NCBI GenBank assembly: GCA_018608565.1 | Contig: JABAZT010000028.1 | Location: 1,014-65,013, forward strand | Length of the DNA stretch: 64,000 bases | Reading direction: 5' to 3' | DNA from: Candidatus Altimarinota bacterium | Lineage (GTDB): Bacteria > Patescibacteriota > Gracilibacteria > UBA4473 | Shown here: positions 1,895-59,058 of the stretch, piece by piece | Numbering within the stretch: position 1 is the first letter of the stretch | Layout of the letters: every line of letters starts with the position of its first letter | Notes under the pieces: model-generated | Seen by the model: only the letters and a program-made list of their open reading frames with translations | Databases searched by the model: none | What the model was told of the DNA's origin: nothing | Program-made: the position numbers and the translations under genes

Positions 1895-2551
1895 ATGAGT
1901 AACCTATTTTTTTGTATCCAAGATGTAAGTCTCTATGAAGGAGTAGATGAGAAGAGCCTCGAAGAAGTGGCACGACTCGCGGCTGAATCGGTCTTAGATA
2001 AAGACAAGCTCCTCTACTCTCCTAATGAGCCCGCCGAATATATCTACGTCATCAAAGAAGGGGAAATTGAAATCTACCGAATCGAAGATGGGAAAAAAAT
2101 AGTCCTCGATACCCTCTATCCGGGTGATGTATTTGGAGATTTCGGAACACAACAGACCAAACACTTCGCGGTTACAAAGCGAAAAACCTACGTCTGCAAA
2201 ACCCCAAAAGATAAATTTATAAAAGTATTAGAAAAGAATCCGAGCCTTACACTCAAGCTGATTGAATCTCTGGCTGACAAGAACCTTTACTACGAAGATC
2301 GTCTTGCGCTTCAATCTCGTCCTGCAAAAGAAAGAGTCTATGAGGAACTCAAATTTCTTCGATCTAAGAGTCATAAAAATATTTTTGGAAAGATCTTCAA
2401 AATCCCTCTGAGAATATCTCATCAACGACTCGCTGAAAAAGTCGGGCTCAATCGAGTTACGGTTACAAAATTAATTGGAGAGCTTAAAATAGAAAACAGA
2501 ATCTCTGTTGATCCAAATACAAATGAGATTAAGATTTTGGATGAGTCTTAA
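1895..2551 (+). CDS. Crp/Fnr family transcriptional regulator
   Basis: cNMP-binding domain (YIYVIKEGEIEI..LYPGDVFGD) plus C-terminal HTH (ISHQRLAEKVGLNRVTVTKLI). Confidence 0.92.
   Translation: MSNLFFCIQDVSLYEGVDEKSLEEVARLAAESVLDKDKLLYSPNEPAEYIYVIKEGEIEIYRIEDGKKIVLDTLYPGDVFGDFGTQQTKHFAVTKRKTYVCKTPKDKFIKVLEKNPSLTLKLIESLADKNLYYEDRLALQSRPAKERVYEELKFLRSKSHKNIFGKIFKIPLRISHQRLAEKVGLNRVTVTKLIGELKIENRISVDPNTNEIKILDES
2454..2542 (+). repeat. 89-bp direct repeat, copy 1 (3' end of crp-family gene)
   Basis: Identical to 3004-3092 except 2 mismatches (2463/3013, 2536/3086). Confidence 0.95.
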
Positions 2552-2556
2552 AAGGC

Positions 2557-2937
2557 TCAAACAGAAACCTCAAGAATAATTTCTTTTCCTGCCTGCATAC
2601 GTTGAAATTGAATATCTAAGATCTCCCCCCAAGCAGGAGACGAACGACGAATATTATCAATAAAATATTTAAAATCACTCAAGAGCGAGGTCTCTGGCGC
2701 TTCCACTCTGACTATTGCTTGTAGACAAGATTGTATCCTAGCTCCTATCTCACGAGAAGCCTGTGTAGCATGTAAACAACACATACACGAACCAAGCTCT
2801 CCAATACTTTTATGTTCATTTACAAATTCAGCCACTATCTCTTCAAATTTCGTCTCATATAATTTATTCAACCCCTGAGCACTACCTCTAAAATCCACAC
2901 TTGAATCTACCATAGGAACTGGGGTAATTATTTTCAT
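2557..2937 (-). CDS. Hypothetical protein (orphan, CxCC motif) between the direct repeats
   Basis: 126-aa ORF with ATG start and upstream TTGACT; no recognised family. Confidence 0.6.
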   Translation of the reverse strand: MKIITPVPMVDSSVDFRGSAQGLNKLYETKFEEIVAEFVNEHKSIGELGSCMCCLHATQASREIGARIQSCLQAIVRVEAPETSLLSDFKYFIDNIRRSSPAWGEILDIQFQRMQAGKEIILEVSV

Positions 2938-21000: not shown

Positions 21001-21541
21001 CAATTGTATTATAAATTTTTTCTGTGGTTTTCCCACTTTTGAGTTGCGCCATAAGATAATCATCTATTTTCCCAAATTTTGGATGTTTTTCACTAATCCA
21101 TTTTGTATAATCATCCCCAAAATCAGCCTTAAGCTTATCAGCTAGTGTGAGTAACTCTGTTTTTTGCCTCTCTGAAAGTTCTGGAGCTTCTGGTGCTATT
21201 GTTTCTGCTGGCATGAGCTTATCAGCCCAATATTCTGCTTCTTCTCTGGTAAATTGGGCGGAAAGCATATATTTTTTGAGTAATTTCTTGTCTACATCCC
21301 CTTCAGCTACTAGTGACTGAATACTTTTTTCTATGGAATCCGTCATTCCTCGAACTGCATCTGGACTTGAATATATTTGAAGCTCATCAACACTTAACCT
21401 ATTTGTTTCGCCTGCCAACACTTCGTCAGAAAGAGAATCCAAATATTTTGATATTTCACCTCCAACTTCACGATCAAGAGTCTCTCGGTCGGAAATCAAA
21501 GCTGTTACTTCATCCTGATGATTTTCTGGAATTTCACTCAT
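18017..21541 (-). CDS. Large acidic hypothetical protein with Pro/Thr linker and C-terminal tandem domain duplication
   Basis: 1174-aa ORF, no signal peptide, no recognised family. Confidence 0.85.
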   Translation of the reverse strand: MSEIPENHQDEVTALISDRETLDREVGGEISKYLDSLSDEVLAGETNRLSVDELQIYSSPDAVRGMTDSIEKSIQSLVAEGDVDKKLLKKYMLSAQFTREEAEYWADKLMPAETIAPEAPELSERQKTELLTLADKLKADFGDDYTKWISEKHPKFGKIDDYLMAQLKSGKTTEKIYNTIASELGLDTTTVDGDPAVVENEGEESYGLNQKQSERLSQFEESYKNESDEIKKMDWIRLIAQDDSDIPTTDIVDSLGGIKYKGNLLGPSEALYSKIGGKDIIKDWVEALKVDSTITNGEQVISKLSEVFNQKLAVVAREYGEVIPAPGAQEPERRAFTERLNTAVDRDIADMKRELGRLLTMYKATPTTENIGAIKETVQGNIESGLLDPEDVVRIFNIADIPVNTQADILGGHMPAPQVPESKEQESGGSIDLGQVSGFSFTRSEIYESTDLIELAAGRLGTALVTEYEAWLDENRAKDQKTKNEAKQNKTKTGPNVIVLDDFLGGIMGGEAALPFPPQLSALLNASQVKVLQNLDTSDLKTKASDMIENAALEYFDKNSENLETQMMGNTRLEVKDEYKSYTKKQLNDEIESHGGMDSPSSEVAALKQALLYRRAMEDGIPKWAYSFRGGEYAEDFSQYLIDTKAAVPTYSDDPALDPASPGFDPNRVDVTEIWDDWFDGVKRKEELQKGDGAEFERAIHALLEFLEGLGISLGDEAGTDKSAKDLFLEGNGLSESEEQKKVREDSAAEKKEKNDRIVRAKEIAEKGDWAGFVLNEVDYEKTVVPVPGTGPVQAPTPVPGTTPGVTPPPAFTEPAPVSPEAAETAQKALQTKRQTFLTSNFGTIEAMNEFQSQILGQEKVRTNIDPTTSLETITTLLKETNKISSQEKDGKTVMIFTVGEGATAKSYEIEGKITDQTVEALKDEMKLDVEAQKREVEEALLLEISGNLSEFSDKFEGDLNSKVIKENGLSNDDGTLNPVFEKLLKIEDSFWKGGGLSEPDIKGLGHMISTKKITDVVVEKTDDTKEFVGVNLMKGAISNPVTTLEALKTKMSNVSRFLAEEELKFNNKVEASITKLDTDGWIRKDEIGVDTLKDAKLLTAEGDLVKGFKDLTSVSNKSSFVFNQPSLNKLGEAIIAEKFTIVRWEDKKIVATIKGKTEQQSLTPEDFMKNINT

Positions 21542-49037: not shown

Positions 49038-51302
49038 ATGGACATTATAAATAAAACTATGAAAGATATTTTTTCGGGAACAACATGGAAACAAGAAATT
49101 AATGTATCTGATTTCATCCAAGCAAACTATTCACCCTATCTAGGGAATAGTAGCTTCTTGGTAGATCCAACACCTAGAACCATAGATCTAAGAGGCAAAC
49201 TAGAAACACTCCAAAAACAAGAACGAGAAAATGGTGGTGTACTGGAGGTAGATGTACATATTCCGTCAACTATCACGAGTCATGCACCTGGATATATTGA
49301 TCAAGAGCAAGAACTTATTGTTGGACTGCAGACAGACAAACCCCTCAAACGAGCGATCAAACCACGAGGAGGTGTCCGAGTTGTAGAAAAAGCTTGTGAA
49401 TCCTATGGTGTCGAACTTGATCCGGCTGTCCAAGAATCTTTTTCAAAACATGTTACAACTCATAATGATGCGGTATTTGGTCTTTATGATACTTGGTCTG
49501 ATTTTGAAACCCCAGATGGCAAAAAACTTCGATCTAAAGGGGTTATCACCGGACTTCCAGATAATTATGCTCGGGGACGAATTATCGGAGACTATAGACG
49601 AGTCGTCCTCTATGGAGTTGATATATTGATCAAGGACAAACATGAATATCTAGATATACACTGTAAATTTCCACTGACTGAGACTATGCAACTGAGAGAA
49701 GAAATCAGCTGGCAAATCAAAGCTCTTAACGATATGAAAACCATGGCTCAAAGTTATGGATTTGATATTAGTCGTCCAGCAGAGAATTTTCGAGAAGCGG
49801 TACAGTGGTTGTATTTTGCCTATCTTGCTGCCGTCAAAGAACAGGATGGAGCCGCCATGAGTATGGGAAGAATTGATGCATTTCTTGATGTCTATGCAGA
49901 ACAAGATATAGAGAATGATATGTTGAATGAATCTGGAGTACAAGAGATTCTAGATGATTTTGTCATTAAGTTACGACTGATGAAGCATCTTCGTATGCCT
50001 GCCTACAATGATATATTTGCAGGAGATCCTACATGGGTGACGCTCGCACTGGGAGGAATGGGAAATGACAAACGAACTCTCGTAACTAAAACTACTTTTA
50101 GACTCCTCCATAGCCTCTACAACCTCGGTCCATCACCAGAACCCAATCTCACGATCCTCTGGTCTATCAATCTTCCTCAAGGATTTAAGGACTACGTGAG
50201 TAAAGTCGCGATAGATACTTCCGCCTTGCAATTTGAAAATGATGACTTGATGCAAGATCAAGGATTTGGATATGATTATGGTATTGCCTGTTGTGTCTCT
50301 GCGATGCAAATCGGGAAGCAGATGCAATATTTTGGGGCTCGATGTAATTTGGCGAAATTACTACTCTTAGCTCTCAACGAAGGACGTGATGAACTTGATG
50401 GATCTCCTGTAATAGAAGGAATTAAACCACTCAAAAATAAAGAATTTCTAAATTATGAAGAAGTAGAAACACAGTTTGAAATCTTGATGAATTGGATCTG
50501 TGAAAAATATGTCGGAACGATGAATCTAATCCACTACAGTCATGATCGACACTATTATGAAGGAGCTCAAATGGCATTGCATGACTGTAACGTAGAACGA
50601 CTCATGGCCTTTGGGATCGCAGGATTCTCGGTATTGGTTGATAGCCTCTCAGCTATTAAATATGCAAATGTAAAAGCGATAAGAAATAAGGAAGGTCTCA
50701 CTGAAAATTTTGAAATAACAGGAGACTATCCAACCTATGGATCAGATGATGATACAGTTGATGATATCGCTATTGAGGTACTTCAGTTATTTTACAAAAA
50801 ACTCAAACAAGTTCCAACGTATAGAAACGCAAAGCACACACTGTCGGTTCTAACGATAACTTCCAATGTTATGTATGGAAATAAAACCGGTGCTACCCCA
50901 GATGGAAGAAATTCTGGAGGTGCATTTGCTCCAGGGGCGAACCCTATGCATCATCGAGATAAATTGGGGGCGATTGCCTCTCTCAACTCCGTCTCAAAAC
51001 TTCCGTATGAGTGTTGTACTGATGGAATTTCAAATACATTTTCAATAACCCCTCAAGGACTTGGGAAAAATAATCTATCTCGAATACAAAACTTGAGTGC
51101 GCTGATGGATGGATACTTCGACAAAGACGCTCATCACCTAAATGTAAATGTCCTCAATGAAGAGACTCTGCGTGAGGCCATGCTCAAACCCGAAGAATAC
51201 TCAAACCTGACGATTCGAGTTTCTGGGTACGCAGTACGGTTTGTCAGCCTCAGTCCAAAACAACAAGAAGAAGTCCTTTCGAGAACGTTTCATAAGAGTT
51301 AG
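49038..51302 (+). CDS. pflB: Pyruvate formate-lyase
   Basis: [24 protein letters not shown] catalytic Cys pair, [17 protein letters not shown] glycyl radical site. Confidence 0.97.
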
Positions 51303-56923: not shown

Positions 56924-57874
56924 CTATTTCCCTATATTTATCAAAGGAATTGGACTCCCCTCTCCTCCTGATCCAAAATAAGTAGCTGGATAGGCTCCGT
57001 CCCATTTTTCAATGGCAGACTTGGCATTTTCGAGTTTTTTAAACTCTAGAATATCTGGAGTAATATCTGTTTGCAGGAGTCTATTAAATTCTCCAATCCC
57101 TTCCCCTTCTAGTATTTTTGCCTGTTTTTCTGCTTCGGCCTTTTTTACTTTTTGCTGCGAACTGATTTCAATTTGTCGGAGTATATATTCTTCTTTTTGA
57201 GCTTTTTGTTCTTCTATTTGTTTTTGTTCAATAGCAGCTTTGAACTGTGCATTGAAGTCAAAGTTTGTAAGATTTATGTCCTCCAGCACTATAAAGTCTT
57301 CTGCAAGTTCAATCGTTAGATATTCTTGAACAAGATTTTTGATCTCTTCTCGTTTTGTTAGTATGTCAGACACCTTATATTTAGCGGTAAAAGTCTTTAC
57401 TGCATCGATCGTTTTTGGAATTACTTTTTTGGATTCATAGTCGAGCCCAATGTCCTGATAAATACTGGCAACTTTTGCTTTGTCGAGATGATAAGTTACT
57501 ACTGCATCTACATATACATCCTGAAGATCAGAACTTGCGGCAAACATAGATCCGTACTCAGTTGCTTTTGCACTCGTAAAAGAGGTTTGTTTATTATAGG
57601 CGAGCTGATTGTTTGATTTATTTACAAATACAATCTTCTGACTTCGTACCGGTATCTGAACTACGTCTTGAAAAATTGGGAGTCTAAAGTGGAGACCCTC
57701 TCCATGGGTACTTGACTGAATCCCTCCACGTAATTTATCAAACACCACCCCAGTATGTCCTGGATCTATAGTTACAAATGGATTGAGTGCGGTAACGACA
57801 AGAATAAGGAGCACTCCTATGGCGATCCACTTAGCGGTACCGAAAAATTGTTGTATGTCTTTCACGAGTGTCAT
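56924..57874 (-). CDS. Prohibitin/SPFH (band 7) family protein
   Basis: N-terminal TM, IDPGHTGVV, GEGLHF, SSDLQ, AAIEQKQI, IEKWDG. Confidence 0.92.
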   Translation of the reverse strand: MTLVKDIQQFFGTAKWIAIGVLLILVVTALNPFVTIDPGHTGVVFDKLRGGIQSSTHGEGLHFRLPIFQDVVQIPVRSQKIVFVNKSNNQLAYNKQTSFTSAKATEYGSMFAASSDLQDVYVDAVVTYHLDKAKVASIYQDIGLDYESKKVIPKTIDAVKTFTAKYKVSDILTKREEIKNLVQEYLTIELAEDFIVLEDINLTNFDFNAQFKAAIEQKQIEEQKAQKEEYILRQIEISSQQKVKKAEAEKQAKILEGEGIGEFNRLLQTDITPDILEFKKLENAKSAIEKWDGAYPATYFGSGGEGSPIPLINIGK

Positions 57875-57938
57875 TTTATTTTGGTGTTTAGAATCTACTT
57901 CTTCTTTATAGAGGTAGTTTTGTGTTTATTCAATTTTT

Positions 57939-57967
57939 TTGACAGAAACTATACGAGGCTCTATAAA
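57939..57967 (+). promoter_or_regulatory. Sigma70-type promoter for the met leader and metA
   Basis: TTGACA(57939)-17-TATAAA(57962); leader ATG 9 nt downstream. Confidence 0.8.
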
Positions 57968-57976
57968 TGACTGTAG

Positions 57977-58036
57977 ATGAAAAACATAAAAGTAATGATG
58001 CCAATGATGATAAACCTTCTACCGAAGGCGAGTTAA
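57977..58036 (+). CDS. Met-rich leader peptide MKNIKVMMPMMINLLPKAS*
   Basis: 19 codons with ATG ATG CCA ATG ATG at codons 7-11, between promoter and terminator, upstream of metA. Confidence 0.85.
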   Translation: MKNIKVMMPMMINLLPKAS

Positions 58037-58064
58037 TTGTTTGTATCTACTACGAATTCTTACT

Positions 58065-58086
58065 CCGCCTTTCTGGCGGTTTTTTT
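58065..58086 (+). terminator. Attenuator terminator upstream of metA
   Basis: CCGCC-tttct-GGCGG-T7; its 5' arm is complementary to AAGGCGAGT (58025-58033) in the leader. Confidence 0.85.
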
Positions 58087-58113
58087 ATTTCTAAATTTAT
58101 TATCTCTCTCCCT

Positions 58114-59058
58114 ATGCCACTGATTATCCCCTCCTCAAACAAACTCCCTATCTATAACTCGCTTGTCTCTGAACGAGTCCATGTAATAGACAAATCTCGA
58201 GCCGAACATCAGGATATCCGTCCACTGAGGATTGGACTCCTCAATCTCATGCCGGCTGCCGTGAGAGAAAAAACTGAGATTCAATTCTTTCGACTCCTCG
58301 GGAACACCCCACTACAGATTGAACCAGTATTGATACGATTTGATGATTTTATTCCGAATACGGGTAAGGAGCGTATGGAAGTTTTTTATGAAAAATTTGT
58401 AGAAGTGAAATCAAAAGGACTTGATGGGCTGATTGTGACAGGTGCAAATCTAGAGACACAAGAAAATGGATTGCTTTTAGATTTTGATCAAATTCATTTT
58501 GTAGATGAATGGAAAAAGATTCTCGACTGGGCGAAAGAATATGTCACTTCCACTATCTATTCGTGTCTTGGTTCTCATTTTGCGTTAGAGCATTTTTATA
58601 AGATTGAACGAGAACATTCTGAACAAAAAATATTTGGAGTTTTCACTCATACGCTCGATCACTCCAATCATCCAGAAATTCTTCGTGGGATGAATGACCA
58701 AGTCCCTGTTCCACACTCTCGATGGGGAAATATACCAATAAAATCTATCAACCATCCTGAGTTACAAATTGTTGCCCAAAATCCTGACTGCGGTTGGCAT
58801 ATGATCCTCGGTCGAAATGGTCGCGAAATCTATCTCCAAGGTCATCCTGAATATGATAGAGAGGATCTAGTCGGAGAATATCTCCGAGACAAAGAAAATG
58901 GTCAGGAAATGCCGCATAATTATTTTCCAAATAATGATGAAACTCAGACTCCCATCTGCAACTGGAAGGCTGATAGCTCCGTTTTCTATCGAAATTGGGT
59001 CAATCATGTCTATCAGACAACCGGATACGATACGACAAAGCCGTTTATGGAGTCGTAG
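58114..59058 (+). CDS. metA: Homoserine O-acyltransferase MetA family (likely acetyl-specific)
   Basis: QDIRPLRIGLLNLMP, TEIQFFRLLGNTPLQ, DGLIVTGANLE (Glu suggests acetyl), catalytic Cys in YSCLG, PHSR, GHPEYD; true start ATG 58114 (MPLIIP). Confidence 0.95.
   Translation: MPLIIPSSNKLPIYNSLVSERVHVIDKSRAEHQDIRPLRIGLLNLMPAAVREKTEIQFFRLLGNTPLQIEPVLIRFDDFIPNTGKERMEVFYEKFVEVKSKGLDGLIVTGANLETQENGLLLDFDQIHFVDEWKKILDWAKEYVTSTIYSCLGSHFALEHFYKIEREHSEQKIFGVFTHTLDHSNHPEILRGMNDQVPVPHSRWGNIPIKSINHPELQIVAQNPDCGWHMILGRNGREIYLQGHPEYDREDLVGEYLRDKENGQEMPHNYFPNNDETQTPICNWKADSSVFYRNWVNHVYQTTGYDTTKPFMES

Follow-up and report, generated by a model that had tools for sequence, protein, structure and literature searches.

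A probable Met-tRNA-sensing transcription attenuator upstream of metA in a member of the Patescibacteria

How might a bacterium of the Patescibacteria tie the expression of metA, its homoserine O-acyltransferase gene, to the supply of methionine? The question is raised by the interval that precedes metA in a 64,000-nt stretch of DNA (the window hereafter) from Candidatus Altimarinota bacterium (GTDB lineage Patescibacteriota; Gracilibacteria; UBA4473; GenBank assembly GCA_018608565.1, contig JABAZT010000028.1, positions 1,014 to 65,013 of the forward strand). To our knowledge, gene regulation is almost unexplored in this mostly uncultivated phylum. Classical leader-peptide attenuators control trp, his, leu, thr, ilv and pheA in Proteobacteria and trp, leu and ilv in Actinobacteria; methionine is not a textbook case of this mode of control, and in Bacillota the RNA elements that usually control metA are SAM-I (S-box) riboswitches and Met T-boxes. 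An original prediction, made from the letters of the window, had nevertheless read the metA leader as an attenuator of the trp/his type with Met codons. Our analysis supports that reading on the basis of (i) conservation of the layout in related genomes, (ii) folding of the leader with a ribosome placed on it and (iii) a dissociation between Met codons before metA and Thr codons before thrS. We therefore consider it likely that the leader is a Met-tRNA-sensing, ribosome-mediated transcription attenuator.

The elements are readily located on the plus strand of the window. An upstream open reading frame (uORF; 57977–58036) of 19 sense codons and a stop codon (58034–58036) starts with an ATG at 57977, has an in-frame stop immediately 5′ of it (57974–57976) and lacks a Shine–Dalgarno sequence. 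Four of its 18 internal codons are Met codons (codons 7, 8, 10 and 11, within 57995–58009), arranged as two pairs (57995–58000 and 58004–58009) that are separated by one Pro codon. A −10 hexamer (57962–57967, 5 of 6 consensus positions) ends 9 nt before the ATG and is separated by 17 nt from a −35 hexamer (57939–57944) in which all 6 positions match the consensus; judged by its sequence, 57939–57967 would function as the promoter, and the uORF would probably be leaderless or have a 5′ untranslated region (5′ UTR) of 0–3 nt. An intrinsic terminator (58065–58086), composed of a 5-bp G/C stem with a 5-nt loop (58065–58079) and seven T residues (58080–58086), begins 28 nt past the uORF stop; it was also picked up by a terminator scan (−8.8 kcal/mol). 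The metA gene follows at 58114–59058 and codes for a 314 amino acid protein (PF04204, 310 bits). The promoter, uORF, Met codons, terminator and metA start thus lie exactly where the original prediction had put them.

From this arrangement we infer where transcription starts, that the uORF is translated, that ribosomes stall and how methionine acts; the mechanism would be the following. Transcription would begin a few bases before the uORF ATG, making the uORF leaderless or nearly so, and a ribosome would translate the 19 codons while RNA polymerase is transcribing the leader. When Met-tRNA is plentiful, the ribosome would reach the stop codon at 58034 and cover 58025–58041; the terminator would then form and transcription would end before metA. 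When Met-tRNA is scarce, the ribosome would stall with Met codon 10 or 11 in its A site, which would keep the Met-codon region from its pairing partner and leave the RNA free from 58025 onward. In that stalled state 58025–58041 would pair with 58055–58071 and capture the 5′ arm of the terminator, so that the polymerase could enter metA. An untranslated leader RNA would carry both a protector hairpin and the terminator, i.e. it would be off by default.

These states were modelled by folding the leaders over the interval between the uORF start and the 3′ end of the terminator stem. The ribosome was represented by a footprint of forced-unpaired bases that reached, relative to the first base of the A-site codon, 15 nt upstream and 12 nt downstream. 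As free RNA, the window leader formed the terminator with a probability of 0.98. Its minimum-energy fold (−23.6 kcal/mol) contained, alongside the terminator, a long imperfect protector hairpin (57991–58051) in which the Met-codon region pairs with the stretch around and past the stop codon; this hairpin, which corresponds to the anti-antiterminator ('1:2') of an attenuator, includes a small 5-bp hairpin (58015–58019/58024–58028). With the ribosome on Met codon 10 or 11, the terminator probability fell to 0.00, and the computed minimum-energy structure was an antiterminator of 12 pairs between a 5′ arm (segment 2, 58025–58041) that spans the uORF stop codon and a 3′ arm (segment 3, 58055–58071) that takes up four of the five bases of the terminator 5′ arm. 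The probability was 0.03 at the codon following Met 11 and 0.99 from codon 14 through the stop, where the terminator alone was present in the minimum-energy fold. The pairing put forward in the original prediction, from 58025 onward with 58055–58071, is therefore the one that the constrained folding returned, and the check that it proposed, folding with and without a ribosome footprint, gave melting of the terminator on Met codons 10 and 11 and its formation at the stop. The accompanying claim that the Met codons open the antiterminator needs to be narrowed: in the model it holds in full for codons 10 and 11 only, whereas the terminator probability remains at 0.72–0.73 with codon 7 or 8 in the A site.

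Relatives were then compared. The metA gene is rare in the group, since it was found in 24 of 401 genomes sampled from the class, in 2 of 401 sampled from the phylum and, at full length, in 6 of 43 of the family. Conservation of Met-rich uORFs upstream of metA in related genomes, another check proposed at the outset, was observed: a uORF with clustered in-frame Met codons precedes metA at 14 of the 24 class loci, in four of eight families (5/6, 1/1, 5/5 and 3/3 loci versus 0/4, 0/3, 0/1 and 0/1), and in all 14 leaders an intrinsic terminator is present 23–32 nt past the uORF stop. Under the strict criterion of at least three Met codons in seven, 11 of the 24 loci qualify; the three further leaders have two adjacent Met codons and can be aligned with two leaders of the same family that satisfy the strict criterion. 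As an outside comparison, we took the 80 best metA loci of species-representative genomes; three have candidate-phylum titles, and the remaining 77 come from other phyla, in the main from Bacillota. A Met uORF by the same definition was present at one of these 80 loci (L040, from a Lachnospiraceae metagenome-assembled genome), where a strong terminator and then metA (at 1201) follow a 36-codon uORF (about 983–1093) that contains 12 internal Met codons. This uORF possesses a consensus promoter, a 5′ UTR and a Shine–Dalgarno sequence, and it appears to be a separate, independent-looking Met leader in Bacillota.

A leader was scored as a switch when its terminator probability did not exceed 0.05 for an A site within the Met cluster and reached 0.9 or more at the stop, and versions with shuffled spacers served as the null. 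Twelve of the 14 natural leaders switched, as against 2 of 700 shuffled versions; for the window leader taken alone, 2 of 200 shuffles switched, and 1 of 200 when a default-off state was demanded as well. The result was not critically dependent on the size of the footprint: as its 3′ edge was moved from +9 to +17, the number of switching leaders was 12, 12, 12, 11, 11 and 9 of 14. The antiterminator arms were taken from the constrained fold of each individual sequence (a MAFFT alignment of the five leaders of one family misregistered the terminator arms). Their sequences differ between families while their complementarity is kept, and the start of the 5′ arm always (14 of 14 leaders) falls within −24 to +2 nt of the stop codon, 16–29 nt past a Met A-site codon. 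Eleven leaders are off by default, with free-RNA terminator probabilities of 0.64–1.00; the other three (L096, L105 and L110) are on by default. Hence, all those features of an attenuator that can be examined by computation, namely a uORF with cognate codons, a terminator, a mutually exclusive antiterminator and the appropriate stall and stop geometry, are present in the window leader as modelled.

The position and the partner of the alternative helix bear on the explanation that survives best among the rivals, although we regard it as improbable: the uORF would sense methionine, with translation of metA or stability of its mRNA as the output, or else arrest of the nascent peptide would sense free methionine or S-adenosylmethionine (SAM). 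There is a precedent for a translational output in the validated leaderless, amino-acid-rich short ORFs of mycobacteria, which are described as unmasking a ribosome-binding site (bioRxiv 10.1101/834739). In the metA leaders, however, a G/C hairpin with a T-run lies at a fixed distance from the stop in every one of the 14 cases, and the alternative helix competes with this hairpin and not with the metA start, which is 24–185 nt further on and has no Shine–Dalgarno sequence to mask. Peptide arrest, for its part, is difficult to reconcile with a peptide that is unconserved outside its Met codons.

The strongest argument that the codons, and hence their translation, matter comes from thrS. The search logic that fits the metA leader, namely an intergenic small ORF with an amino-acid run and a T-run behind it, was applied to the whole genome and led to a Thr uORF before thrS on contig C19 (plus strand, about 21087–21128, equivalent to L119 238–279; thrS at L119 385–2142, TIGR00418, 657 bits). 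It has 13 codons, nine of which are consecutive Thr codons, is situated about 10 nt past a consensus −10 box and is followed by a terminator 31 nt after its stop. In the folding model the terminator probability was 0.00–0.07 for a ribosome on the Thr codons and rose to 0.99 at the stop; as modelled, the thrS leader is a Thr leader-peptide attenuator. Loci with thrS were taken from 30 of the 43 family genomes; 14 of them have a uORF with four or more Thr codons in seven and none has a Met-rich one (0/30), while the metA loci of the class displayed the reverse (Met-rich 11/24, Thr-rich 0/24).

This double dissociation tells against the view, to which we attach very little probability, that the leader is a translation-independent RNA element (a riboswitch, or a protein- or tRNA-binding leader) in which the AUG clusters are an RNA motif instead of codons. 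The regulation of metA by SAM riboswitches or T-boxes is common in other phyla, and the genome itself contains a SAM-I riboswitch (RF00162; contig C17 28983–29072, minus strand, equivalent to L118 1501–1590; 47.9 bits against a gathering score of 44.4), its sole one, 46 nt upstream of metK (L118 294–1454, minus strand). Such elements would also share with the metA leader a location between promoter and gene and an intrinsic terminator as output; what differs is the sensor. Neither SAM-I nor the T-box (RF00230) gave a match in 57500–58500 at E-values up to 10, where chance-level matches only were obtained from Rfam (the best being an L10 leader with 17 bits against a gathering score of 44); at the gathering threshold, Rfam returned only rRNA for 14 other leader loci, and no T-box was found in the genome. 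Moreover, the AUG triplets are the only primary sequence that the leaders share, they are always in one frame together, and that frame is also the frame of the promoter-adjacent start codon and of the stop codon at the antiterminator arm, whereas the same layout before thrS carries Thr codons. With SAM-I at metK and a leader peptide at metA, SAM and Met-tRNA seem to be sensed by separate devices.

The leader peptides are 14 to 29 residues long and differ in sequence apart from the Met cluster, their layout being what they have in common. Among close relatives the peptide drifts freely around fixed Met codons and a fixed stop, which favours sensing over a functional peptide as the role of the uORF. 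The distribution of leaders was also mapped on a tree of 35 MetA sequences, which included 13 hand-chosen representatives of the 80 outside loci and from which L111 (in-frame TGA) and L112 (cut by a contig end) were left out. Leader presence required six changes on this tree, at least five of them forced by well-supported branches; the leader was thus not simply inherited with one metA lineage. We give equally little credence to the proposal that the uORF encodes a functional Met-rich peptide (metal-binding or membrane-located, for example), the terminator merely ending its transcript and metA having its own promoter. Met-rich small ORFs are admittedly not rare in the genome (166 of 17,202 small ORFs have at least three Met codons in seven, most of them off-frame within genes). 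Yet the length and sequence of the peptide vary freely outside the Met cluster, its association with metA spans MetA clades that are not sister to one another, and a pairing that competes with the terminator would serve no purpose, in spite of which it occurs in 12 of 14 leaders as against 2 of 700 shuffles.

The elements are short and the genome is A+T-rich, but it is hardly credible that a short ORF, a hairpin and a T-run came together by chance, given the 2 switches in 700 shuffles, the layout at 14 of 24 loci in four families and the single hit in 80 metA loci outside. Within the 1.66-Mb genome the metA uORF is the sole intergenic or 5′-proximal small ORF with at least four Met codons in seven and a downstream T-run. 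This uniqueness, the spacer shuffles and the recurrence in relatives exclude chance; the feature is real.

Several observations weigh against an attenuator at metA. Two leaders, L093 and L112, fail to switch in the model, and in the window leader Met codons 7 and 8 afford partial relief only (0.72). The folding is purely thermodynamic and takes account of neither polymerase pausing nor folding kinetics. The transcription start is placed solely by the consensus promoter. The leader is dispensable, for it is absent from 10 of the 24 class metA loci, and the closest MetA relative found (68% identity; L117, a metagenome contig) is without it, its metA starting 1 nt past the stop of the preceding gene. 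A scan of proteins from genome contigs yielded no close relative suitable for a covariation analysis of the window's own leader, and a metagenome scan yielded only this L117, which has no leader. Methionine shortage, in addition, should also lower the charging of initiator tRNA, and a default-off leader could then terminate just when expression is needed. Finally, the pathway looks incomplete: the genome (43 contigs, estimated to be 98.85% complete, from a lineage that presumably reads the standard code) carries homoserine dehydrogenase, metK and a divergent 498 amino acid Cys/Met pyridoxal-phosphate (PLP) enzyme (contig C34), while no match to the methionine synthase families PF01717 and PF02574 was found in it. 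Because neither family was found, what metA feeds is uncertain in this genome. On the side of the attenuator, relatives have behind the leader a coherent methionine-pathway operon, in which metA is followed by a gene for a full-length Cys/Met PLP enzyme (five loci) or a PALP enzyme (one locus).

The near-leaderless start predicted for the uORF, to which the original prediction had drawn attention, turned out to be recurrent: 11 of the 14 leaders have a −35/−10 pair (at least 8 of 12 consensus positions) that ends 7–11 nt before the uORF ATG. The promoter of the window was counted by eye, the script having demanded a T as the last −10 position. A Shine–Dalgarno sequence is absent before all 14 uORFs and before all 14 metA genes. 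These spacings suggest that initiation at or very near the 5′ end would be a recurrent property of such leaders.

One further candidate emerged from the genome-wide scan, a Cys uORF on contig C30 (plus strand, 49873–49929, equivalent to L120 174–230). It contains three consecutive Cys codons, lies 9 nt past a −10-like box, is followed by a strong terminator from 26 nt after its stop and switches at the Cys codons in the folding model. The downstream ORF (L120 306–1256) codes for a 316 amino acid protein that matches no Pfam or NCBIfam family and for which an Atlas search was uninformative (score 0.75); the sequence of its leader hints at a tie to cysteine supply. The search logic may accordingly aid the prediction of gene function.

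Taking the three leaders together, one may speculate that amino acids are sensed in members of the class mainly by a small 'ribulon' of leaderless leader-peptide terminator switches (Met at metA, Thr at thrS and Cys at the gene without a known family), that the Met switch arose several times on metA genes of differing origin (MetA proteins with a leader occupy at least five places in the tree) and that the device reads both initiator and elongator Met-tRNA. We offer this only tentatively and think that it could well be wrong. Within it, initiation on a leaderless uORF would need charged initiator tRNA on a 70S ribosome, so that there would be two Met-tRNA inputs; if this is true, the default-off leaders (11 of 14, with a free-RNA terminator probability of at least 0.6) and the default-on leaders (3 of 14) would represent two settings. 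Since methionine serves both initiation and elongation, a leaderless Met attenuator allows one to ask how the cell discriminates between the two demands.

The original prediction had known of no described Met attenuator; this does not stand, as Met leaders had been proposed earlier in two organisms. In Campylobacter jejuni, MetL is a 20 amino acid uORF before metBA that has three Met codons and is carried on a short RNA whose end lies just past the stop codon; attenuation has been proposed (Porcelli et al. 2013, PMC3847290). Its translation was confirmed in a start-site profiling study that also reports a second Met-enriched uORF, located upstream of a methionine transporter (bioRxiv 10.1101/2022.11.09.515450). 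By its text description, on which our comparison is based, MetL resembles the window leader in being a short Met-codon uORF upstream of metA, there within an operon, although the two would not be expected to be homologous; the passages on it describe neither alternative structures nor a test of the response to methionine (PMC3847290). In Streptomyces lividans, a leaderless uORF named metL lies before metNIQ; it has just two internal Met codons, with Cys codons between and around them (Droste et al. 2021, PMC8079986). It likewise places Met codons in a uORF upstream of a gene or operon related to methionine, but according to its authors there is no Rho-independent terminator, and it controls a transporter and not metA (PMC8079986). 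The mycobacterial leaderless poly-Cys short ORFs are presented as validated sensors that act on translation within a ribosome-directed regulon (Canestrari et al., bioRxiv 10.1101/834739). They resemble the present case, for which a leaderless start is only predicted, in their clustered cognate codons and their occurrence at several loci (Met-metA, Thr-thrS and a Cys uORF in the window genome). They differ from it in that the competing structure of the window leader is an intrinsic terminator and that, as noted, no Shine–Dalgarno sequence precedes metA (14 of 14 loci). A survey of Actinobacteria explicitly reports finding no RNA element for methionine genes (PMC1262725), and the accessible passages of a 2010 survey of premature terminators mention no Met leader (PMC2965389). 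The literature searched, i.e. that outside subscription journals and supplements, contained no proposal of a Met leader peptide beyond those cited above, no functional assay of a Met attenuator and no account of attenuation in Patescibacteria.

In silico, the metA leader is like the classical attenuators in its cognate-codon uORF, its intrinsic terminator, its competing antiterminator and protector hairpin, and in that the position of the ribosome would decide between them. It differs from them in its Met codons, its lack of a Shine–Dalgarno sequence, its apparently leaderless start and its host, a member of the Patescibacteria with a genome of 1.66 Mb. The mechanism itself is therefore classical and Met leaders have been proposed before; what is new here is a probable Met attenuator with an apparently leaderless start in a phylum for which the literature searched reports no such regulation. 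Patescibacteria would thereby gain a concrete cis-regulatory mechanism that recurs across several families, and Met-specific attenuation, so far only proposed in Campylobacter and Streptomyces, gains comparative and structural support.

With regard to metA itself, the encoded protein scores below the equivalog cut-offs of both NCBIfam models (acetyl 312 bits, succinyl 303 bits). The gene is monocistronic in the window, the next gene being on the opposite strand. Its reading frame remains open for 49 codons 5′ of 58114, back to an ATG at 57967, which gives a 363 amino acid ORF that runs across the uORF and the terminator. We considered such an N-terminal extension and rejected it: the ATG overlaps the −10 box, with which it shares the last base of that box, the terminator would fall inside the coding sequence, and seven of seven aligned MetA proteins begin at the Met that matches 58114. 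Automatic annotation may nonetheless call a false 363 amino acid MetA here and swallow both the uORF and the terminator.

Some features of individual leaders deserve mention. L093 (minus strand) has tandem Met-cluster uORFs, at about −294 to −225 and −159 to −75 from metA, each with its own terminator; it may be a tandem attenuator, the second unit of which is predicted to switch weakly (0.30). In L006, the interval between the terminator and metA (about 1425–1497) contains some ten head-to-tail 7-nt C/A-rich units just before the metA start, and similar motifs are present in L097, L099 and L100. The repeats of L006 may act as a translation enhancer for a metA gene that has no Shine–Dalgarno sequence. 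In L105, an rRNA operon ends with a 5S rRNA gene (2611–2726, minus strand) that the metA leader (2426–2598, minus strand) directly follows, and a search for a consensus promoter belonging to this leader alone gave none.

Small identical fragments of the window sequence occur in three marine-metagenome DNA runs; no RNA run was among the matches listed. Just 5′ of the metA promoter, a terminator-like hairpin of eight pairs with a T-rich tail is present at 57895–57917 (plus strand), within the 239-nt gap that separates metA from a divergent SPFH/Band-7 gene (56924–57874, minus strand).

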